Of a DNA stretch of 42,959 bases, positions 1,982-41,553 are shown one piece after another (the stretch's first letter is position 1; every line of letters starts with the position of its first letter). Position numbers and translations under genes: made by a program. Source of the stretch: a virus (Duplodnaviria; Caudoviricetes). The notes under the pieces are model-generated. The model searched no databases. It had not been told where the DNA came from and saw only the letters and a program-made list of their open reading frames with translations. The stretch lies in the IMG/VR virus record IMGVR_UViG_3300036817_000491, positions 1-42,959 of that record; one strand, 5' to 3'.

Positions 1982-3672
1982 TAGCGGAGTCCATTAATTT
2001 GGTTGGGAGTTAAGACACGGTGCCAGATGCGGAAGTTGCGAATGTGGTAGACCGCGAAAGAGTTGCTATTAAATCTGATGGATGTTCCCGAATATGTTGG
2101 GCCGGTAGGAGCTTGCCCGGTTCGCGTTGCGCTTTCGCCGTTGAAGTAACCGGAGACTGTATTGTCATTGGCTACATCAATTGTTTGAACATATGTTTTC
2201 TTATTGAATGGGTAAGTTACATTTGGAACAGCTATTCCACCTGATCCCCTATAAGAAATTAACTGATTCGCAATTCCTCTAATAATAATATCGTTACGCG
2301 CGCCCACATTTGCCAAAAAGTCCACATAACCAGGCCCGGTCGTAGGTACTACGAACTGATCTACTGTAAACTCAACCGCGACGGTACGTGCGAAGATATC
2401 CCCTACCACGCCATAGCCGGAATTCCCTTGCGACTGCAAATTGAGCTGATCCCCGCCCCTCGTTACAGCCGCCGTGCCGGTCGGAATGTAGCTTGTAGGT
2501 ACGGCATTTTTTTCAAACTGTACGGTCTGAATATAAAACTCAGTGCCGACAGGGATGCTATTTGTGTCAACATCTTCTGGCATAGCGTAAATCTGTGCTG
2601 TATAAGCTCCTGCCGCCGCACCTTTGAGCGTCGCAGTGGCAAGGGTGTAACCATCACCCCCTGTCTTTGTTGTTACGGTCAGCCCCCCAGACGCTCCAGT
2701 TGTCTCCCCTGTACTGAATAAGAAACGAGCCTCCCCCAAAAAAGTGGAGTCTTTCACAATGCGGAACCTGAAGCGCCCGTAATTACCTTTGAATCGAGCG
2801 GATACGGTAAAATTTTCCCCATCGGCCAGTGTCACGGCGCTACTCTGAACAATTAAAAGGTTGTTTACTGCATTATTGCAAACGCCCTTCATGGTCGCCG
2901 CCTGCGTTGTGCCGTCTTTTATTGCCGTGGCGGTTAGCGAAGCGGCCTTGCCGGCCCACTTGGTCGGGTCGTCACTGTTCAGGAAATAGTTAGTGCTCTG
3001 CCCCTCCATTAACAATCCGTCGCGTTCAAAACGCGGCTCGTTAATATCAGCGGTCTGCAATACGCCGGATTTGTCGATATACGTTGCCGTCGTAGAGCGG
3101 GTAAGTGTCGCTGATTTTGTCGTCAGCTCCAGTACCTGCCCGGAAATGGTCAGCCGGTCGTAAGGCGCAAACCCGGCCAGCAGGCGGAGGTCATCATTCA
3201 GCGGTAACCAGACATCAGGGAACGGGGCCTCCTCATAGGGTACAGACGTCAGTTTCTGCGCGGCGGCAAGGGATGCGGCGGCACTGCTGGCGCTGGCGGC
3301 TGCGTTGTTCTCCGACGTTTTGGCATTCGTCTCAGACGTTTTCGCGTTCGTCTCGGAGGTTTTGGCATTCGTTTCGCTGGTCTTTGCTGCAGAAGCGCTG
3401 CTTGCCGCTGCGGTCTTTGATGAGTTCGCGTTCGTCTCAGAGGTTTTTGCGTTCGTTTCTGAGGTTTTGGCAGCAGCGGCGCTGGTTCCTGCCGCACCCG
3501 CCTGGGCGATCAGCTTTGACCAGCTGGGACCCGTCTTTTTGGAACCGTCGTCCAGGGTTACGGTGACGTCACCGGTGCCCGATAAAATCAGATCCTGGTT
3601 GATGATACTGCTTTGCGCCAGGCGAAATCCTTCAGATACAGCTTTCGCCAAATCGTCATCAAGTGTGGCCAT
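1981..3672 (-). CDS. Side tail fibre protein
   Basis: Follows J. Has AKTSETN heptad repeats, a PDVWLPL...TRSTTATY...EPRFE...EGQSTN segment and a lectin-like HIRNFRIW C-terminus. Confidence 0.85.
   Translation of the reverse strand: MATLDDDLAKAVSEGFRLAQSSIINQDLILSGTGDVTVTLDDGSKKTGPSWSKLIAQAGAAGTSAAAAKTSETNAKTSETNANSSKTAAASSASAAKTSETNAKTSETNAKTSETNAKTSENNAAASASSAAASLAAAQKLTSVPYEEAPFPDVWLPLNDDLRLLAGFAPYDRLTISGQVLELTTKSATLTRSTTATYIDKSGVLQTADINEPRFERDGLLMEGQSTNYFLNSDDPTKWAGKAASLTATAIKDGTTQAATMKGVCNNAVNNLLIVQSSAVTLADGENFTVSARFKGNYGRFRFRIVKDSTFLGEARFLFSTGETTGASGGLTVTTKTGGDGYTLATATLKGAAAGAYTAQIYAMPEDVDTNSIPVGTEFYIQTVQFEKNAVPTSYIPTGTAAVTRGGDQLNLQSQGNSGYGVVGDIFARTVAVEFTVDQFVVPTTGPGYVDFLANVGARNDIIIRGIANQLISYRGSGGIAVPNVTYPFNKKTYVQTIDVANDNTVSGYFNGESATRTGQAPTGPTYSGTSIRFNSNSFAVYHIRNFRIWHRVLTPNQINGLR
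3305..3475 (-). repeat. Degenerate 21-bp tandem coding repeats (AKTSETN)
   Basis: About six KTSE(T/N)NA units in two blocks in the fibre stalk. Confidence 0.85.
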
Positions 3673-25074: not shown

Positions 25075-25169
25075 AAACCCCGGGTGCCTCCCGGTGAGCT
25101 TACTCCAGTAAGCAAATTCGCATACGTCCAGCTTTTACTGGTTGCCCCACCGCTTAGGGGGATTGGCTT
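25075..25169 (-). ncRNA. Putative pseudoknotted structured RNA, copy 2
   Basis: Shares conserved blocks and co-varying stems with 26847-26940. Confidence 0.65.
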
Positions 25170-26695: not shown

Positions 26696-26797
26696 TTCTC
26701 TCACCTCGCTGTTCGCGGGTGTTATGTTTGAAGAATCAGGCTCTCCGGATGAATTAACGACAAGACCTTGATGGGGGTTTCCGGGAGCCTGAAATAG

Positions 26798-26822
26798 AAA
26801 AAGGCCGCCAATTGGCAGCCTT
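26798..26822 (-). terminator. Intrinsic terminator upstream of the holin
   Basis: GGCTGCC-AATT-GGCGGCC followed by TTTTT. Confidence 0.8.
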
Positions 26823-26846
26823 AGAAATAGATGATATTGAGGTTGT

Positions 26847-26940
26847 GGTGCCGGGTGCCTCCCGGTGACTCTGTGCCAGACCACAGACCCGCGTTACTCA
26901 CCTGCCTGTCTGGACGCCCCACCGCATAGGGGGATTCACC
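26847..26940 (-). ncRNA. Putative pseudoknotted structured RNA, copy 1
   Basis: Closing stem, two conserved hairpins, and a variable hairpin whose loop GTCTGG pairs with upstream CCAGAC. Confidence 0.65.
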
Positions 26941-27110
26941 ACCCGGGCACTCTACTTTGCTTACATCTTAAAAGATACATTAACTTACATGTTACTTAAT
27001 AATAAAAAACTCCGCCGGATGAAGCCATTGAATGAATGCGTGCCCCTGGGAGCGCGTCACATCGTCTGCTATCGTTGTTTTCCAATAACCATACAGACAA
27101 GGAGATTAAC

Positions 27111-34029: not shown

Positions 34030-34449
34030 TTAAGCCCTCCCCGCCTGGCGCAGGCATTCTTTACGCCGTTTGGCGATCCGGGCAACTTCGACAGCACTGC
34101 AGGCGATACCGAACATGTCCGAATACACCGCTGCGGCGCGGCGCCACAGTCCCTTTTCTTCCAGCGCCTTCGCTTTCTGTTCAGCGGCCTGCATCTTCAC
34201 CGGGTCGCTTTTCTCCTCCATGCACGGAAGGATCACATCCGGAATATCGGCGTGCGGTACCGCCGTATAGGTGTACTGGACGCTGTTACGGGATCGGGTT
34301 ATCACTCCATCGTCGCTCAGCTCGCGCAGCATTTTGCCTGCTGTAGCGCCTGACATATCCAACGCTTCGGAAACATCGCCGACGGCGCAGTTCGGTTGGT
34401 AGCGATCAAAAATCGCCACCTGGTCTTTCTGGGTTAATTGTTTGGTCAT
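34030..34449 (-). CDS. HTH plus PerC-like transcription regulator
   Basis: N-terminal wHTH and A..LEEKGLWRRAA PerC-like motif. Confidence 0.75.
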   Translation of the reverse strand: MTKQLTQKDQVAIFDRYQPNCAVGDVSEALDMSGATAGKMLRELSDDGVITRSRNSVQYTYTAVPHADIPDVILPCMEEKSDPVKMQAAEQKAKALEEKGLWRRAAAVYSDMFGIACSAVEVARIAKRRKECLRQAGRA

Positions 34450-34465
34450 TGGTCAAAACTCGATT
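34447..34465 (-). repeat. 19-nt early-operon motif AATCGAGTTTTGACCAATG, copy 1
   Basis: Exact match to the copies at 36060 and 38836. Confidence 0.9.
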
Positions 34466-35136
34466 TAGTTGATTAAACCAGCCGCTTTACGGCGTTTGTA
34501 CTCTTCCATCAGCAACTGTGCCGGCGTTGGCCCTGCCTGGTGCTGCGGTGCTGCAAGCTGGCGACGAATCGGCGGTACCGACAGGCCGTTACTGACGTGC
34601 TTGCTCCATTTCGTTAACAGCTTTTCTGCCAGTTTTTTAAGCTCCCCCTCTGTCATCTGGCGCTCCACGCCCGTTCTGCGCATCTCAATGCAGATGTGGT
34701 ACAGCACCGGCTGCGGCCACGGGTATTTGTCGCTTCCTGAATACCGATAGGACTCGTTGCGCCAGCGGCGATACTCCCCCATGACACTGTCGGAGGTCAG
34801 GCCGAAGGCGTTCGCACCACTTTCGGAAACGAGCGACACGAACTCAGCGAGATCTGGTGGCCAGGTGTTCCCACCCGCGCAGCGCTCCATGCACTGCTGG
34901 CAGACCAGACTGATTTGCTGTTCAGTCATCGAACCGATCTGGGCTATCCAGAGCGGCGAAGGTTCCGCCCCATTCTTCTGCGTCCACCGGTTCGAGAATA
35001 CTTCCCCCATGACCTGCCACAGGCGCCATGCCGTTTCCGTTGCCATCAAGTCCATTGCGACGTCTCCACTCTGCGTGTGCTGACTGAATCTGCTGAACAG
35101 CTCTGGATGCTGTAGGCTCTCCCCGAACTCCTGCAT
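34465..35136 (-). CDS. Replication protein P-like (helicase loader position); start uncertain
   Basis: WPPDLAEF and YPW..PVLYHI motifs; follows the initiator. Confidence 0.8.
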   Translation of the reverse strand: MQEFGESLQHPELFSRFSQHTQSGDVAMDLMATETAWRLWQVMGEVFSNRWTQKNGAEPSPLWIAQIGSMTEQQISLVCQQCMERCAGGNTWPPDLAEFVSLVSESGANAFGLTSDSVMGEYRRWRNESYRYSGSDKYPWPQPVLYHICIEMRRTGVERQMTEGELKKLAEKLLTKWSKHVSNGLSVPPIRRQLAAPQHQAGPTPAQLLMEEYKRRKAAGLIN

Positions 35137-36028
35137 TGGCCTTACCTCCGGTTTCCGGTTGTTTTTTCGATCTCACCAGCACGATGTGCCGGGCGAATTT
35201 TTGTTCCCACTGGACCTGGGTGAACACCTTCCCCTCCGACTCCCAGTACGATGAGAACTCCGCGAGCTCCGTCGGCAGGTAATCTGGATCAGGCAAAGCT
35301 ATCCCCCACGTGGCTGCGCGCTGGCGGAAATCACGGCTGGGCAACCAGGCGGCTGTCATCGTGAATTTGCCGATGGGTTCATCCAGACCGTCAACGTATC
35401 GCGGAGCAACGGGTTGTTCTGGTAAACCAGCAACACCAGAATTTTCATTCGCGCCCGCGTTAAGAGAGGGGTTTAAGATCTGTTTACTGCTTACTGCTTT
35501 CTGGATACCTGATGGCAAAGGGCAAGCCTTATCCTTAGGCAAAGGCATAGCCATGTCGTATGCCTTCCCCATAGACTCAGACACCCCATAACACGCGGCC
35601 TGTAGCGCCACCCATGCCTCCCATTTCAGTTCACACTCGGGCAATAACTCGAAAGCCCGCGCCCATGATTTGATCACATTCACTGAAGCTGGCGGGTTAT
35701 GTGCCGCCGCCTTAGGAAGCCAAAAAACTCTGGCTTTCAGGTCGGCTTTAACCATGCCTAAAGCTAAGCCTTCGCTTAAGGCAGAGTCGAAAGCTTCCAG
35801 TTCCCACCCCAACTCTTCAGCTAGCGCCGCGCGACCGCCTTTGAATAAGCCCGGGATAATCCCGGTGAACGGGCTGGTCAGCAGATAAATAAACAGGCTT
35901 TGCCCGCTGGGCGGCAAAGGTGATAACGCGCGAAACTTTGGATCATCCCACATGGTGATCTTCACCTTGCGGTAAGGCTCATTTGTAGCCTTACTTTTAG
36001 GCATCGCCTTAGGCAAAGGGTTAGACAT
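34922..36028 (-). CDS. Replication initiator (O position) with C-terminal DnaT-like domain
   Basis: MWDDPKFRALS wHTH start; KFTM..AWLP...EF.SYW...QVQWEQKFAR. Confidence 0.85.
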   Translation of the reverse strand: MSNPLPKAMPKSKATNEPYRKVKITMWDDPKFRALSPLPPSGQSLFIYLLTSPFTGIIPGLFKGGRAALAEELGWELEAFDSALSEGLALGMVKADLKARVFWLPKAAAHNPPASVNVIKSWARAFELLPECELKWEAWVALQAACYGVSESMGKAYDMAMPLPKDKACPLPSGIQKAVSSKQILNPSLNAGANENSGVAGLPEQPVAPRYVDGLDEPIGKFTMTAAWLPSRDFRQRAATWGIALPDPDYLPTELAEFSSYWESEGKVFTQVQWEQKFARHIVLVRSKKQPETGGKANAGVRGEPTASRAVQQIQSAHAEWRRRNGLDGNGNGMAPVAGHGGSILEPVDAEEWGGTFAALDSPDRFDD

Positions 36029-36059
36029 ATCTCACCTCGCGGTTATTAGTCGGAGAACT

Positions 36060-36078
36060 CATTGGTCAAAACTCGATT
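36060..36078 (-). repeat. 19-nt early-operon motif, copy 2
   Basis: Exact AATCGAGTTTTGACCAATG directly after the cII-like stop. Confidence 0.9.
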
Positions 36079-36631
36079 ACGTAAAAAGTGGTGCCAGTGC
36101 CTGCAGGTGAGCGATCATCACCCCGGCAAGCTCACCGGGTAAAAGTGCTGCGTTAGCCAGGAGGTTCTCAAAGCCCTCCTTCGCTTGCTTCTTGCTCGGC
36201 AGGCCCAGCAGTTTTGCCTGATGGTGCTCGCCGCTCTCTTTTATCGCCTCAGCCACCAGCTCGATATCGGTTTTACCCTGACGGAGACCGTGTTTTCTGG
36301 CGATCTCAATCGGCATGGCGTTACCGATCGCGTTCGCGAGCTGCATGACATAGGCCGTGTATTTGCCGGAGTTGGTTTCGTTTTTCAGGTAGCGAAAAAG
36401 GTTCTGTTTGTTCACAGTGATCCCTCGCCCACCCTCCTTTGCCCAGTGTTCGGCCACCAGCTGCGTAACAACGTCCTGCGCCTGGCCCGGGATAGTTGCC
36501 TCCCACTCACGAACGGCAGACAGAATCGCGCGATGGCGTGTTGAGTCCCGGCGACGATGCTCAATCTGATTTCGGGTTTTCAGCGGAGCGGTGTTCTGCC
36601 GGTTAAGATGTTCAAACGTTACTGATTGCAT
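36077..36631 (-). CDS. CII-like regulator (YdaT family)
   Basis: Follows cro; AI..AVREW...GQ.Q..VTQLV; start MQSVTF with a GGAAGG RBS. Confidence 0.8.
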   Translation of the reverse strand: MQSVTFEHLNRQNTAPLKTRNQIEHRRRDSTRHRAILSAVREWEATIPGQAQDVVTQLVAEHWAKEGGRGITVNKQNLFRYLKNETNSGKYTAYVMQLANAIGNAMPIEIARKHGLRQGKTDIELVAEAIKESGEHHQAKLLGLPSKKQAKEGFENLLANAALLPGELAGVMIAHLQALAPLFT

Positions 36632-36633
36632 GA

Positions 36634-36858
36634 TTAACCTTCCTGATTTGTGGGGAGATCGGTTGGAAAAACACTGTCCAGAGAGCACACCGCTCCTAAG
36701 GCATTAAGTGTCTCAACGATGGTCCTGCATTCAGACAGTCCTGGTTCTCGAAGACCGGCTTCGTAGTTAGATAATCGCGAGCGGCCCCAACCAAGAGCCT
36801 CGGCTAGCTGCGATTGCGACAATCCCAATTTCTGACGCTCAATGGCAATGTTGTTCAC
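36634..36858 (-). CDS. cro: Cro-like HTH regulator
   Basis: 74-aa XRE HTH divergent from the repressor. Confidence 0.85.
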   Translation of the reverse strand: MNNIAIERQKLGLSQSQLAEALGWGRSRLSNYEAGLREPGLSECRTIVETLNALGAVCSLDSVFPTDLPTNQEG

Positions 36859-36887
36859 GGTTTACTCCTACACAGATTTTATGCGTC

Positions 36888-36917
36888 ATATTAGACACGT
36901 TTTGTGTCTACCGTCAA
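36888..36917 (-). promoter_or_regulatory. pR-like promoter with operator TAGACAC-N5-GTGTCTA (36892-36910)
   Basis: TTGACG-N18-TAATAT; 19-bp palindrome over the spacer; weaker copies at about 36914-36933 and 36939-36957. Confidence 0.8.
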
Positions 36918-36951
36918 CCTCAGAATGTGTCAGCTCGTTAGCCACAGAGCG

Positions 36952-36960
36952 TGGTAATAT
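36952..36960 (+). promoter_or_regulatory. pRM-like extended -10 giving a leaderless cI mRNA
   Basis: TGGTAATAT ends 6 nt before the ATG at 36967; no SD. Confidence 0.6.
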
Positions 36961-36966
36961 TTTGGA

Positions 36967-37356
36967 ATGAAATCTATGGCTGAAATTATTGGTGAGAGGC
37001 TCAGGTCTCTTCGAGAAAGGAAGAAGTTAAGCCAAGCGCAACTATCTAAGTTGTGCGGGTGGTCCACTGCCTCAAGAGTAGGTAACTACGAGGGAGGGCT
37101 GAGGAACATTGGTGTCGATGACGCTATTACACTTGCCAGATACCTTGATACCACTCCTAGTTTTATTCTTTTTGGTGATGAACAAAACAAAGGTCAGGAA
37201 TTGCCAGAAAAACAACGGCGCCTATTGCTATTGTTTAATCAGCTCCCCTCAACTGAACAAGATAAAATGATCGATCTCTTCGAAGTGCGACTCAGGGAGA
37301 TAGACGATTACGTCGCCAAGTATCTACAAGGTAGATATAAACCAGCAGAAGAATAA
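36967..37356 (+). CDS. cI: Prophage repressor, short DicA/Gifsy type without an S24 peptidase domain
   Basis: 129-aa XRE HTH with LL.LFNQLP..EQ C-terminus. Confidence 0.88.
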   Translation: MKSMAEIIGERLRSLRERKKLSQAQLSKLCGWSTASRVGNYEGGLRNIGVDDAITLARYLDTTPSFILFGDEQNKGQELPEKQRRLLLLFNQLPSTEQDKMIDLFEVRLREIDDYVAKYLQGRYKPAEE

Positions 37357-37366
37357 CCCCTTAAAC

Positions 37367-37390
37367 AACCGGCCTTGAGCCGGTTTTTTT
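37367..37390 (+). terminator. cI terminator
   Basis: AACCGGC-CTTGA-GCCGGTT followed by a T-run. Confidence 0.8.
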
Positions 37391-37453
37391 ACGGCCCACT
37401 TAACATCCTTGCTAAGTCTACTTATCGCTCGCTCTTACTTGTCACTTTTTGTG

Positions 37454-37484
37454 TTGACACATAGACACATTGCGTGTCTATAAT
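37454..37484 (+). promoter_or_regulatory. pL-like promoter with operator TAGACAC-N5-GTGTCTA (37462-37480)
   Basis: TTGACA-N19-TATAAT; same palindrome arms as at pR. Confidence 0.8.
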
Positions 37485-37630
37485 GATTCCACAAATTCAG
37501 TCATCCAGGCAGGACGCCCACGAAGTAGCTGCCGGCGGCATACGAAACACCGGATGAGATGACAAATGCAATCGCGCAGCAGGCTTTACCGTTCCGTCGG
37601 CCAGACGTAAATGGCAATAAGGAGATAACC

Positions 37631-37753
37631 ATGATCGACTATGCACGTAACCCCGTAAAACAGCAGGCCATTCGCCTTAACATCGTTGAAGTCTTGATCC
37701 GCAAGTTCTGCTACTTCATGGCGCAGAAAGGCAATCCAGAACTCAACGCATGA
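37631..37753 (+). CDS. 40-aa first gene of the pL operon
   Basis: MIDYARNPVK...; TAAGGAG RBS; ATGA-coupled to the next gene. Confidence 0.7.
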   Translation: MIDYARNPVKQQAIRLNIVEVLIRKFCYFMAQKGNPELNA

Positions 37754-37932
37754 GCATGTTCTTCGCCTTAATCATTCCAGTCTGCGCCCTCACTGGGGAA
37801 TGCTCAGACATCATGCTCGGTCTCTATAAAACCGAAGCGATTTGTGAAGCAGTTGCCGCAGAGCAGCACGTGAAAGGACAGTGTTACCCGTACAAACCGG
37901 CTGACGACCAACAGCCAGCGTTACATTTTTAA
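37750..37932 (+). CDS. YebW/DUF1482-like small Cys-containing protein
   Basis: FALII.VC..TGEC.DI..G.Y.TE..C...C pattern. Confidence 0.75.
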   Translation: MSMFFALIIPVCALTGECSDIMLGLYKTEAICEAVAAEQHVKGQCYPYKPADDQQPALHF

Positions 37933-37949
37933 TCGAGTTTCGACCAATG
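37931..37949 (+). repeat. 19-nt early-operon motif, copy 3 (1 mismatch)
   Basis: AATCGAGTTTCGACCAATG. Confidence 0.88.
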
Positions 37950-38059
37950 GCTGTTACCAGCCTGATGCCAGGTGCACATGGCATCGCGATGGTAATCCCG
38001 CCATCACAACCAAACAGGAGACGAAGACCTGTTCTGGTTAAATTGGAAAAGTTCTCTTT

Positions 38060-38086
38060 GCCCGTCACCCGTGGCGGGCCTTTTTT
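38060..38086 (+). terminator. tL-like intrinsic terminator
   Basis: GCCCGTCAC-CC-GTGGCGGGC followed by CTTTTTT. Confidence 0.75.
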
Positions 38087-38097
38087 CCGGAGGTTTT

Positions 38098-38433
38098 ATG
38101 TCAGCGAACGAACTGGCATTGCGATTCAGCAGCGCACCTGCAGAGAAGTTGATCGGCGTTCTGCCGGTTCTCGAAGTCAAAGAGGCGCTGCGCAGTGAAG
38201 TTGAAGAGGACGTGCTGGATGAAGTCTGGCAGGAGCATCAGTTTGAAATAGAAGCTGTTGAGGAGCAGACCGAGGAAGCGAACCGCCTGGCGCAGAAGTT
38301 TGAACTGGTTGCGGAGACGTTTGGAACGGCGATTAAGCTGGCCCTCACCCTTCCGCACTGCGAAGCGATTCAGGTTCTGCAGGATGCTATTGAAGATAAT
38401 CCGGGCTATGGCCGGGATCCGGTGAAGGGGTAA
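38098..38433 (+). CDS. Hypothetical acidic protein
   Basis: MSANELAL start with GGAGG RBS. Confidence 0.75.
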   Translation: MSANELALRFSSAPAEKLIGVLPVLEVKEALRSEVEEDVLDEVWQEHQFEIEAVEEQTEEANRLAQKFELVAETFGTAIKLALTLPHCEAIQVLQDAIEDNPGYGRDPVKG

Positions 38434-38436
38434 GCC

Positions 38437-38778
38437 ATGGAGTTTGGAATGAAACGAGTGATGGCATCTGTCCAGGCCGTTGCAGTGCTGGAAAGAATCT
38501 ACCGCGGAACGCCTGTACCGCTCGCCACACTGAGTAAAGAAATGAAGCTCTCGGTTTCTTATCTGGAGCAAATTTTCAAGCGGTTGCGCAGCGGCAACCT
38601 GGTGACCTCGCACAGAGGCCCGGGCGGTGGTTACAGCCTGCGTGAAGGAGATATCTCAGTTTCAGCAGTAATCCGCGCAGTAAGCAAGATCCCGTCGAAC
38701 ACCACGTTCGACCCTGTGCTGGATGCGCTTGATGGCGTGCTTGTCTCCCAGCTGGCGAAAAAAACCAGCGTCCAATAA
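38437..38778 (+). CDS. Rrf2-family winged-HTH regulator (Cys-less)
   Basis: LSVSYLEQIF..LR...LV.S.RGPGGGYSL. Confidence 0.88.
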   Translation: MEFGMKRVMASVQAVAVLERIYRGTPVPLATLSKEMKLSVSYLEQIFKRLRSGNLVTSHRGPGGGYSLREGDISVSAVIRAVSKIPSNTTFDPVLDALDGVLVSQLAKKTSVQ

Positions 38779-38835
38779 GCACAAAACCCGCGCAAGGCGG
38801 GTTAAGTACCCGGTCAGCCGACCAAAGCTTTCCGG

Positions 38836-38854
38836 AATCGAGTTTTGACCAATG
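38836..38854 (+). repeat. 19-nt early-operon motif, copy 4
   Basis: Exact AATCGAGTTTTGACCAATG upstream of the exonuclease gene. Confidence 0.9.
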
Positions 38855-38916
38855 ACCACTACCCAAGGCGGCGATCATCAGCTGTTGGGTATCTTACACC
38901 CAAATGAGGCTCCAAG

Positions 38917-41553
38917 ATGGAATTTTTTTATCAGATTAAGGCAACCCAGAAATCAGGGAAACCTGACGGCGTTATCTGGTTCAGTGCCAATACGGCATCA
39001 CGCGCAGCGCTGCAGCTGGACGTCGCGCTGGAAGACGCCGAAATCGAAACTGGCCGCGGTAAGGATTACGCCAAGCCTGTACGCACAGACATGCCGGTTG
39101 TGGACGATCTGCCTGAAGAAGGCGTGATTGATTACACCTGGTGCGAGCGCTATACCCTGGCCGACGACCAGCGCACCTGGATTGTGATCCCTGGTGCCGC
39201 GCCTCAGAGCGAAACCACCATTGCCCCGGCCACCGCCGCCAGCGCTGAGAATCAGCCTGCCGCAACGGTAACCACCACTGATATCGCTGATATGGGCAGC
39301 ACCTCCCCGCTTGAAAATCGCACCCCTGCAGTACGCTTTGCTGTCCATCTGCTGGGCGACAAATATCACACCGAGATTACCAAGGAGCAGCTGATTGTCG
39401 CCAACGAACTGGTGATGGACGAGGAAATTGTTTATTTCCAGAACCTGCTGCAGGCCAAAAATGACGTTGCTGATATTGATGATCTCAGCCTGCATGCAGA
39501 GTGGAAGCTGGTCCAGGCCGTCAAAGACGTTTTCCCGCAGGACAAAGAACACGAACCTGCACTTGTGGCCGTTTTCATGTCGAGCTGGATTAAAGCCGAA
39601 GCTGACGAGCGCAATCAACTGGTTGACGACTGGAAGAGCGGAAAGCTTCCAGCCAAAGAAGAACCTGAGAACTTATTTGAGCATGGCCTGAGGATCAGTA
39701 AACATGATGACGGGGGCGCTCATTATCCCGTCTGCAAAATGCCATTCCGCAAACAGCTCCTGGCTCAGTTGACAGCTGATGAACTGCGCCATCATATCAG
39801 CCGCAAAGAACACGCGGATCTTCACTTAATGGAAATGGACACCGATAACGGATATGTCCAGAACCTGCTTCTGGCCGCAGAGAACTCTCCAGAAGTTAAG
39901 GCTTATGACACCAAAGACCTGTGGCGCTACACGAAAGCGATCCGAGAAGTCTTCAGCATGGATAAACGCCATGAGCTTGCGCTGCTGTTGCAATTCACTA
40001 AAGCTTGGGTAGCCACCTCATATATAGACCGCGGCATCCTGACGCGTGAGTGGGTCGCCGACAATCGTATTAACCTTGTGCAACGCACTGACGCAAGCAC
40101 CAATGCCGACGGCGGGTATGTGACTGACCGCGGCGCAGATGCGCATCACACCCTGGACACCCTGGATCTGGAGATCGCCTGCGCCCTGCTGCCGATGGAT
40201 TTCCACCCTTTTGAAATCCCTTCCAGTGTTTTGCGCCGCGCTAAAGAGATTGTCGCGAACAAAGAAGAACCCTGGAAATCATGGAGCAAAATCCTGCGCA
40301 ACCAGCCAGGCGTTCTGGGGGTCAACCGCGCGGCCATCTTCAACCTGGTTCGCATCGCGCCGGAGAATATCCACCTGACGCCAGCTGCGCATCTGGAGTT
40401 CGTGAACCAGACGATGACGGCTGAGTTCTGCCAGGCGACTGAGCTTCTCCCTCTGCCGTCCATCGAATCGGAAGAGGACACTCAAGCCGTCGAGCAGCAA
40501 CAAGCATTGCCGAAATGGGTAGAAGCCGGTGAGAAAAAACTCGCTGATGAAGATGAAGCAGAAACGCAGACCCTGCCAAAGTGGGTGAGTGCTGCCGACA
40601 GCCAGCCGCAGGTCGCGAACCTCGGCGGCGGCGTGTTCTCTATCGAGGGCCTGATGGGTACAAATAATGACCCGGTCATCAATACCCTCTCAAACGCAGT
40701 CGAAAAAACGGAAACAGTAACGGAGACCACCAGCGATGTGCAGATGGAAGAGACTAACCCGGCGAAAGGAGAAAGTGTTGGCGCGGTTCCACCAGGCGAA
40801 AGCGCTGATGCAACTGCTGCGCAAACAGATGCCGTAGCGGGAACCATCTGTGCTAGCTGTGGTACCGAAGGTGGCAGCGGTTGCCCTGACTGTGGCGCCG
40901 CGGTTGGCGATGCAACCTATGCGGTGATGGAAGCGGGTCTGAAAGAGGAACTGGAAGCGCTGGAGCCTAATTCTACAAATTCGGAAATCATGTTCACGCA
41001 CCTGATGGTGGATCTCGAAACCATGGGTAAAAAACCGGGCGCGCCGATCGTTTCAGTAGGGGCCGTATTCTTTGACCCGGCCAGCGGTATGACCGGTACT
41101 GAATATTATCAGGTGATTAATCTCGAATCGTCGATGTCATTCGGGGCCAGGCCAGACGCCAGCACTATTCTCTGGTGGCTGAAGCAATCGCCTGAAGCAC
41201 GATCTGCAATCGTGGTGGATGATACGGTCGGCATGGTAGAAGCGCTTGAGCAGCTTCTCGACTTCATAGCTGAAAACGCAGCCAACGGTTCTAAGAATGT
41301 GCAGCTCTGGGGAAATGGTAGTTCGTTTGATTGCTCTCTTCTGGAGGCAGCATTTGAGTTAGCCGACACGCCCTTCCCGATCCCGCACTGGAACTACCGT
41401 GACGTGCGAACCGTCGTTGAGCTGGGTAAAGCGGTTGGGCTAAATGCTCGCTACGACATCCCTTTTGAAGGCGATCAGCATAACGCCCTGGCCGACGCCC
41501 GCCACCAGGTCAAATACGTATCGGCTATCTGGCAACGCCTGACAGCAATCTGA
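38917..41553 (+). CDS. RecE/ExoVIII-like N-terminus fused to a DEDD 3'-5' exonuclease domain
   Basis: N-terminal KATQKSGK...DDLPEEG..D..WCERY; C-terminal HLMVDLETMG, WGNG..FD and HNALADA. Confidence 0.85.
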   Translation: MEFFYQIKATQKSGKPDGVIWFSANTASRAALQLDVALEDAEIETGRGKDYAKPVRTDMPVVDDLPEEGVIDYTWCERYTLADDQRTWIVIPGAAPQSETTIAPATAASAENQPAATVTTTDIADMGSTSPLENRTPAVRFAVHLLGDKYHTEITKEQLIVANELVMDEEIVYFQNLLQAKNDVADIDDLSLHAEWKLVQAVKDVFPQDKEHEPALVAVFMSSWIKAEADERNQLVDDWKSGKLPAKEEPENLFEHGLRISKHDDGGAHYPVCKMPFRKQLLAQLTADELRHHISRKEHADLHLMEMDTDNGYVQNLLLAAENSPEVKAYDTKDLWRYTKAIREVFSMDKRHELALLLQFTKAWVATSYIDRGILTREWVADNRINLVQRTDASTNADGGYVTDRGADAHHTLDTLDLEIACALLPMDFHPFEIPSSVLRRAKEIVANKEEPWKSWSKILRNQPGVLGVNRAAIFNLVRIAPENIHLTPAAHLEFVNQTMTAEFCQATELLPLPSIESEEDTQAVEQQQALPKWVEAGEKKLADEDEAETQTLPKWVSAADSQPQVANLGGGVFSIEGLMGTNNDPVINTLSNAVEKTETVTETTSDVQMEETNPAKGESVGAVPPGESADATAAQTDAVAGTICASCGTEGGSGCPDCGAAVGDATYAVMEAGLKEELEALEPNSTNSEIMFTHLMVDLETMGKKPGAPIVSVGAVFFDPASGMTGTEYYQVINLESSMSFGARPDASTILWWLKQSPEARSAIVVDDTVGMVEALEQLLDFIAENAANGSKNVQLWGNGSSFDCSLLEAAFELADTPFPIPHWNYRDVRTVVELGKAVGLNARYDIPFEGDQHNALADARHQVKYVSAIWQRLTAI

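Follow-up and report, generated by a model that had tools for sequence, protein, structure and literature searches.

A predicted IsrB-like antisense RNA and its candidate target sites on both early arms of a lambda-like prophage

The window, by which we mean the whole stretch of 42,959 nucleotides analysed here (IMG/VR record IMGVR_UViG_3300036817_000491; Duplodnaviria, Caudoviricetes), is a lambda-like prophage with cI and cro in the middle. Its pR arm carries CII/YdaT-like, initiator, P-like loader and PerC-like genes, and its pL arm a 40-aa open reading frame (ORF), DUF1482, an optional ORF, Rrf2, recE, xis and int (Table 1). A 19-nt motif recurs in four copies along these two arms, and an earlier reading of the same DNA from its letters alone (hereafter, the original prediction) had proposed that the copies are a strand-specific RNA site for non-N antitermination or phage-controlled translational activation, or else a conserved module-exchange linker. 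That reading overlooked a predicted RNA gene on the opposite strand, which covers copy 4 and resembles the IsrB small RNAs of Salmonella prophages. Here, we describe the motif, this gene, and the possibility that its RNA pairs with the other three copies.

A search of the window found exactly four matches to the motif at up to three mismatches, none of them in the late region, and there was no match in 100 shuffles of the window; the copies, their positions and strands, and their absence from late genes thus agree with the original prediction. Copies 1, 2 and 4 are exact, and copy 3 carries the single T>C variant already noted. Between copies 1 and 4 identity runs beyond the motif, to 23 nt. 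Copies 1, 2 and 3 overlap the TAA stops of the P-like, CII/YdaT-like and DUF1482 genes, respectively, which bears out the claim that three copies sit at a TAA, and copy 4 lies between Rrf2 and recE, 57 nt past the Rrf2 stop. All four are oriented as early transcription according to the Pfam/PHROGs gene layout, again as proposed. The ORFs said to begin at the motif ATGs were recovered as well. That of copy 1 is the PerC-like gene, of 139 aa; that of copy 2 has 13 codons and runs over the start of the initiator at 36028; those of copies 3 and 4 are out of frame, have 83 and 91 aa, and conserve neither frame nor length in relatives. The terminator expected about 110 nt after copy 3 was located 111 nt downstream of it, at 38060-38079. 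Two details of the original prediction did not hold. To say that the terminal ATG has no Shine–Dalgarno (SD) sequence was too strong, as a weak GAG stands 9 nt ahead of it, and the mini-hairpin drawn within the motif is disrupted by alleles common in relatives. TTGACC was tried as a -35 box and rejected, since neither strand has a suitably spaced -10. Neither the DNA nor the RNA spelling of the motif, on either strand, was found in the literature searched.

In a permissive Rfam search, isrB matched the minus strand over copy 4 with 19.2 bits (E 4.7), which leaves the predicted gene below the 35-bit gathering cut-off of IsrB (RF01386). The predicted 103-nt RNA has a fold z of -3.9 and a three-hairpin architecture on the antisense strand, with a UUUGGUCGG loop and a terminator, and the gene lies antisense directly before recE. 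Across 26 distinct motif-type genes, chosen from 110, 96.4% of the pair cells are paired and eight pairs are changed on both sides, a covariation signal exceeding 500 of 500 shuffles and every slid control. Helix 1 is paired in 96% of cells when read on the minus strand and in 62% on the plus strand, a gap due to 116 G-U cells. A TAnnAT box stands at a fixed distance in 132 of 145 distinct regions, compared with 13% in shuffles, and in 82 of the 83 motif-type regions; TAGAAT, TACAAT and TAAAAT are among its variants. Inspection by eye gave no shared box that would point to activation of this promoter by CII. A model built from the 26 genes finds the HK225 gene (E 2.4e-5), which itself scores above the Rfam isrB cut-off and so forms the bridge to the family, and Gifsy isrB (E 0.03). 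The fold, its covariation, the -10 box and the model matches to HK225 and Gifsy together make a well-supported case that the putative gene is an IsrB homologue, and we file it as IsrB-like rather than as a curated member. Distant IsrB-like genes at L395:6971-7086, L418:859-977 and L481:250-357 carry two or three UUGGUC words, which suggests that UUGGUC may be the basic functional unit of the family, perhaps a protein-binding loop.

The complement of the motif corresponds to the unpaired linker of this RNA together with the 3′ strand of hairpin 1, which is weak and G-U-rich, and the stretch shared with the other copies begins at the base of hairpin 2. Helix 1 varies mostly on one side, its 5′ strand, which argues for an extra constraint on the 3′ strand. 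Linker conservation is 0.89 in motif-type genes versus 0.53 in the other IsrB types; upstream of the -10 box the two groups show similar divergence (0.61 and 0.66, respectively). When the whole RNA was folded against 853 genome windows in transcript sense (mean -5.7, sd 6.0), its best non-cis partners were copy 1 (-27.7) and copy 2 (-22.3), and the best other window reached -19.6.

Table 1. Motif copies, the predicted RNA gene and neighbouring features of the window
Feature	Position	Strand	Remarks
Copy 1	34443..34465	-	Predicted target, 23 nt without mismatch, past the P-like stop; spans the weak SD and the PerC-like start codon
Copy 2	36059..36078	-	Predicted target, 20 nt without mismatch; spans the start of the leader ORF of 13 codons (36062-36021)
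Copy 3	37931..37949	+	18/19-nt predicted target past the DUF1482 stop; conserved 4-5 bp hairpin directly after
Copy 4	38836..38854	+	Template of the predicted RNA's linker and 3′ strand of hairpin 1
Predicted IsrB-like small RNA gene, ~103 nt	38783..38885	-	Two hairpins (UUGGUC loop in the second) separated by an unpaired linker, then a terminator
Predicted -10 hexamer TAAGAT of the small RNA promoter	38891..38896	-	No good -35 in the window's lineage
Intrinsic terminator of the small RNA	38785..38803	-	Helix 3, 95% paired in 26 sequences
CII/YdaT-like gene	36077..36631	-	PF06254, phrog_163
Replication initiator	34922..36028	-	phrog_1408
P-like helicase loader	34465..35136	-	PF06992, phrog_109; ORF as listed, true start may be further in
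PerC-like transcriptional activator gene	34030..34449	-	PF06069
DUF1482 gene	37750..37932	+	PF07358
Rrf2-family regulator gene	38437..38778	+	PF02082
RecE-like exonuclease gene	38917..41553	+	PF06630, PF16473; upstream portion of the RNA promoter falls within its start region
GACCAA-containing stretch upstream of copy 3	37898..37915	+	Partly complementary to RNA loop 2; kept in relatives

Exact motif searches returned 165 viral stretches (about 310 estimated) and 62 stretches of species genomes. Among the latter, 23 are single matches in non-enterobacterial genomes, a number consistent with a chance estimate of ~35, and these were excluded from the junction and crossover counts; the remainder are prophage-like loci named for ten enterobacterial genera and one short contig labelled Pseudomonas. 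Matches at one mismatch or fewer are confined to one cluster each in three host genomes, a motif match is present in 15 of 401 sampled genomes, and in E. coli the copy-2 region is matched in a single genome of 5426, within a truncated prophage. The original prediction had called for a look at orientation and position in related prophages, and both are conserved. Anchoring on the CII protein, which makes no use of the motif, places the motif at the CII stop in 63 of 63 loci (62 exact), and in all 113 loci with sites on both arms the sites are divergent, as the early transcripts are, which fits a strand-specific RNA site. Sites occur on one arm only in 22 loci and on neither in three; locus L452 has three pR-arm sites, not two. 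At the P junction, 56 of 57 contexts have the following gene in frame with the motif ATG. The 37 distinct contexts of the CII junction are more varied: the leader ORF stops within -4 to +2 of the initiator start in 11 and inside the initiator in 14, the ATG starts the gene in four, the ORF stops earlier in four, and four have no ATG.

Sites and RNA type occur together. Of 135 loci with a motif-type RNA, 132 have extra sites; among 51 loci with other IsrB types one does, and this case is doubtful as it rests on a loose pattern match. The 135 loci are related and were partly found via the motif, so they are not independent tests. Anchors on protein ends give a similar picture: the CII end is followed by a site in 41 of the 44 motif-type contexts listed, with two further sites overlapping the last codons, and the P end by a site in 53 of 59 motif-type contexts versus none of 15 of the other types. 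Only nine of the 135 motif-type loci have a CI more than 90% like that of the window. At L429, a motif-type RNA gene stands beside a foreign pR arm without sites; this locus is a natural recombinant in which the RNA gene is present and its candidate targets are absent.

In part, sites also vary together with the RNA. Four variant RNA lineages were distinguished (one-base-shorter, TTCTG, GAAC and ATA). All four distinct pR sites of the one-base-shorter lineage are likewise one base shorter, all three sites of the TTCTG lineage carry C, and every one of these seven sites pairs better with its own RNA. The site still follows the RNA variant at L653 and L654, where CII belongs to another family, the CII stop falls within the motif and an ATG is lacking. 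Of the 15 pL sites in the GAAC lineage, 14 are changed at the same position, versus one of 70 sites that occur with the canonical RNA.

We therefore favour, with a probability of roughly 0.55, a reading in which the IsrB-like RNA is a one-to-many antisense repressor that pairs with copies 1–3 and represses translation; copy 4 is predicted to be the master copy, and at the same time the cis partner on the pL mRNA. By analogy with Salmonella IsrB, the RNA would have its own promoter, active in the lysogen. A search for RNA data turned up no raw-read RNA run; the four runs compared with the window consist of contigs, two of them flagged as probably DNA. Contact would begin between the unpaired linker and the first 12 nt of a site; the weak hairpin 1 would then be unzipped, and the resulting duplex of 18-23 bp would cover the weak SD and the AUG. 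Pairing at copy 1 would shut off the PerC-like activator. At copy 2 it would close a leader ORF through which ribosomes reach the replication initiator, in the manner of CopA and tap-repA, and at copy 3 the genes further along the pL arm would be affected. Full pL transcription would cross the RNA gene and titrate the RNA in cis, and by removing the RNA in this way an open pL would free the pR-arm sites. The pR arm would then be translated only once both arms are active, which would set a threshold that guards against leaky induction.

A more ambitious version seems to us doubtful, though worth stating: an IsrB-family RNA may have gained a phage-internal, repressor-independent regulon, titrated by pL, that silences start sites on both early arms and also confers a clade-wide RNA immunity against heteroimmune relatives, whether incoming or co-resident. 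The immunity part draws on the constancy of the RNA and its sites while the repressors vary widely.

Several observations weigh against the antisense reading. Copy 3 is predicted to bind weakly, at -15.1 kcal/mol in the full-length model, which is within the tail of the background, and the T-run facing the proposed toehold is the most variable part of the sites. Differences between a site and its own RNA show no enrichment of G-U pairs (11 of 41 versus 22% expected). The motif-type RNA largely travels with one CII clade, so that kinship accounts for part of the co-occurrence. Of 21 distinct sites in the GAAC and ATA lineages, only six prefer their own RNA over the canonical one, and concerted change is equally expected from a co-evolving protein or from gene conversion. 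Finally, the IsrB-type genes of Gifsy-1/2, SPN3UB, HK225 and mEp237 have no long self-targets in their own phages, and none was found for the other IsrB types checked, whose best diagonals have about 12-14 matches; the lack of such targets for the IsrB of Gifsy, HK225 and mEp237 implies that the basic job of the family is something else. In SPN3UB, a 9-nt match to the IsrB loop lies at the cro start codon (L168:7305-7315, minus strand) and may be due to chance.

Some of these observations are also what one would expect if the four copies were equivalent sites, on early mRNA or DNA, for a protein of the phage or the host that governs translation, processing or termination, with the overlap of the IsrB-like gene being incidental. 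We regard this as unlikely. Site conservation falls into two blocks, CGAG and GACCAAT, around the variable T-run, which suits a protein footprint, as do the missing G-U bias, the covarying hairpin directly after copy 3 and the fact that the sites go with one CII clade in most loci. However, no candidate protein is confined to motif-bearing loci: among the 51 loci without sites, the 40-aa first pL ORF is present in 33 and DUF1482 in 18, and Rrf2 and PerC are absent from many loci that have sites. L653 and L654 keep their sites despite a different CII family, and a YdaT/CII operator was rejected because the published YdaT box (PMC9986795, PMC11879457) is an inverted repeat, TTGATT-N6-AATCAA, unlike the one-way motif. 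A bound protein would also leave unexplained why the shared stretch starts at the edge of hairpin 2.

Still less probable, in our view, is that the motif is mainly a recombination boundary for swaps of early modules, spread by copying and homogenised by recombination, although the linker proposed originally captures something real. Module partners do switch at the motif: one CII end is followed by five initiator types, one initiator type is preceded by several CII ends, the P-junction site is found after both P-like and DnaC-like genes, and the length of pL sequence separating copy 3 from copy 4 ranges from about 95 to 1400 nt. However, swaps between phages need one shared junction, not the same 19 nt at four, and with direct repeats on either side, the initiator and loader would be prone to deletion. 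Crossover with copy 4 was not seen, none of 268 distinct non-RNA sites being joined to the 5′ part of the RNA gene, and neither the overlap with a structured RNA nor the concerted variants on opposite strands 2-5 kb apart would be explained. Module exchange at the sites is real but likely secondary, a side effect.

An improbable alternative is that the motif is a stop-restart element, coupling the translation of neighbouring genes without a trans factor. The TAA, the weak GAG and the ATG are the least variable letters, and in 29 of the 37 distinct CII-junction contexts the ORF starts, abuts or overlaps the next gene. Nevertheless, the ATG is absent from four of these contexts, L653 and L654 have their stop inside the motif and no ATG, the copy 3 and copy 4 ORFs lack a conserved frame or length, and coupling needs no identical spacers at unrelated genes. 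We can give very little credence to the remaining proposal, N-independent antitermination at a nut-like site, in spite of the co-orientation on both arms, the terminator after copy 3 in the window and the absence, as the original prediction had it, of any N-like family among 19 early proteins: this terminator follows only 49 of 115 pL-arm sites and is missing after 66, the sites lie deep in operons rather than directly past promoters, the boxA core, GCUC, is absent, neither a cognate N-like protein nor a position before the first terminators was found, and IsrB-bearing relatives such as Gifsy-1/2, SPN3UB, HK225 and mEp237 manage without copies of the motif.

If the antisense reading is right, lambda-like prophages of Enterobacter, Klebsiella, Citrobacter and their kin would have, in addition to the repressor, a second, RNA-based brake on both early operons, and this brake would include control of a replication initiator through a leader ORF, a form of control familiar from plasmids. 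The constancy of a short sequence at module borders would also be accounted for, with its use in recombination as a by-product. IsrB has been known since 2008, and three testable candidate targets (perfect at copies 1 and 2, 18/19 at copy 3), together with natural compensatory variants would make the mechanism of the family directly testable.

Further features of the window deserve mention. The GACCAA-containing stretch upstream of copy 3 is a possible second contact of the RNA. Starting at the G of the copy 3 ATG, a strongly structured element with four hairpins and the terminator (37949-38088, plus strand; z -4.4) has a homologue in the pL arm of HK225, where the motif is absent, and no Rfam match; it could be a processed small RNA or an attenuator. 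A hairpin of 4-5 bp (37949-37962, plus strand) also begins at this G, is kept with paired changes after most copy 3 sites in relatives, and can pair as well with a matching stretch upstream of the motif. The pL leader at 37506-37560 (plus strand) is 85-92% identical to that of SfV, ST64B, SfII and many other phages, with no significant fold over 37495-37630 (z -0.3). Elsewhere, 26792-26975 (minus strand) matches the Rfam small RNA STnc100 with 78.7 bits, part of this match recurring at 25138-25164, and a degenerate repeat with a 21-nt period at 3269-3496 probably belongs to a tail fibre gene. The small RNA svsR (PMC12803456), situated at the 3′ end of cI, was considered and is unrelated.

Among known systems, lambdoid mosaics contain short conserved intergenic boundary sequences where modules switch (PMC3233612). 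The motif resembles them in that module partners switch at it, and differs in standing at four junctions of one genome and in overlapping a structured RNA gene. Lambda OOP, a small antisense RNA acting at the cII-initiator junction (10.1101/787010), offers a parallel to the action predicted at copy 2; it is, however, encoded at that junction, whereas in the window the junction has only a 20-nt site and the RNA lies on the other arm. The leader-ORF/initiator layout at copy 2 recalls plasmid R1, in which the antisense RNA CopA blocks a leader ORF coupled to the replication initiator, tap-repA (PMC4393325). Unlike CopA, which acts in cis on one target, the RNA of the window would reach a predicted target 2.8 kb away on another transcript.

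The C4 and CI RNAs (clan CL00128) share with the RNA of the window the predicted pairing of a phage small RNA with sites in the phage's own early mRNA. They derive from the same strand and operon as their targets; the RNA of the window, by contrast, has an opposite-strand promoter and candidate sites on two divergent operons. The Rfam models of C4, c4-a1b1 and IsrK found no match in the window, and the same models match Gifsy-1. C4 of P1/P7 and CI of P4 pair with early mRNA of their own phage and add a second layer beside the protein repressor (PMC8198154, PMC3632133); the main text of the latter paper (Barquist 2013) does not mention isrB.

The closest relatives are IsrB-1 and IsrB-2 of Salmonella (RF01386; Gifsy-2 and Gifsy-1, respectively). 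The Gifsy isrB genes lie antisense just before recE/sbcA, are 88-94 nt long, are expressed in lysogens and are induced by starvation (PMC2330248). IsrB figures among the prophage RNAs that associate with ProQ and likely play a part in lysogeny (PMC5391140), and it shows hardly any enrichment on Hfq (PMC2515195); no target or mechanism of IsrB came to light in the literature searched. The RNA of the window agrees with Salmonella IsrB in its antisense gene before recE/sbcA, its own -10 box, and the succession of a 5′ hairpin, a middle hairpin with a UUUGGUCGG loop and a terminator, and differs in its sub-threshold score, its linker and its 5′ hairpin. The early arms of Gifsy contain no further long match to IsrB, whereas the RNA of the window has three, and what is new here is thus a predicted IsrB homologue with three built-in candidate targets across both early arms, which it likely regulates by pairing.

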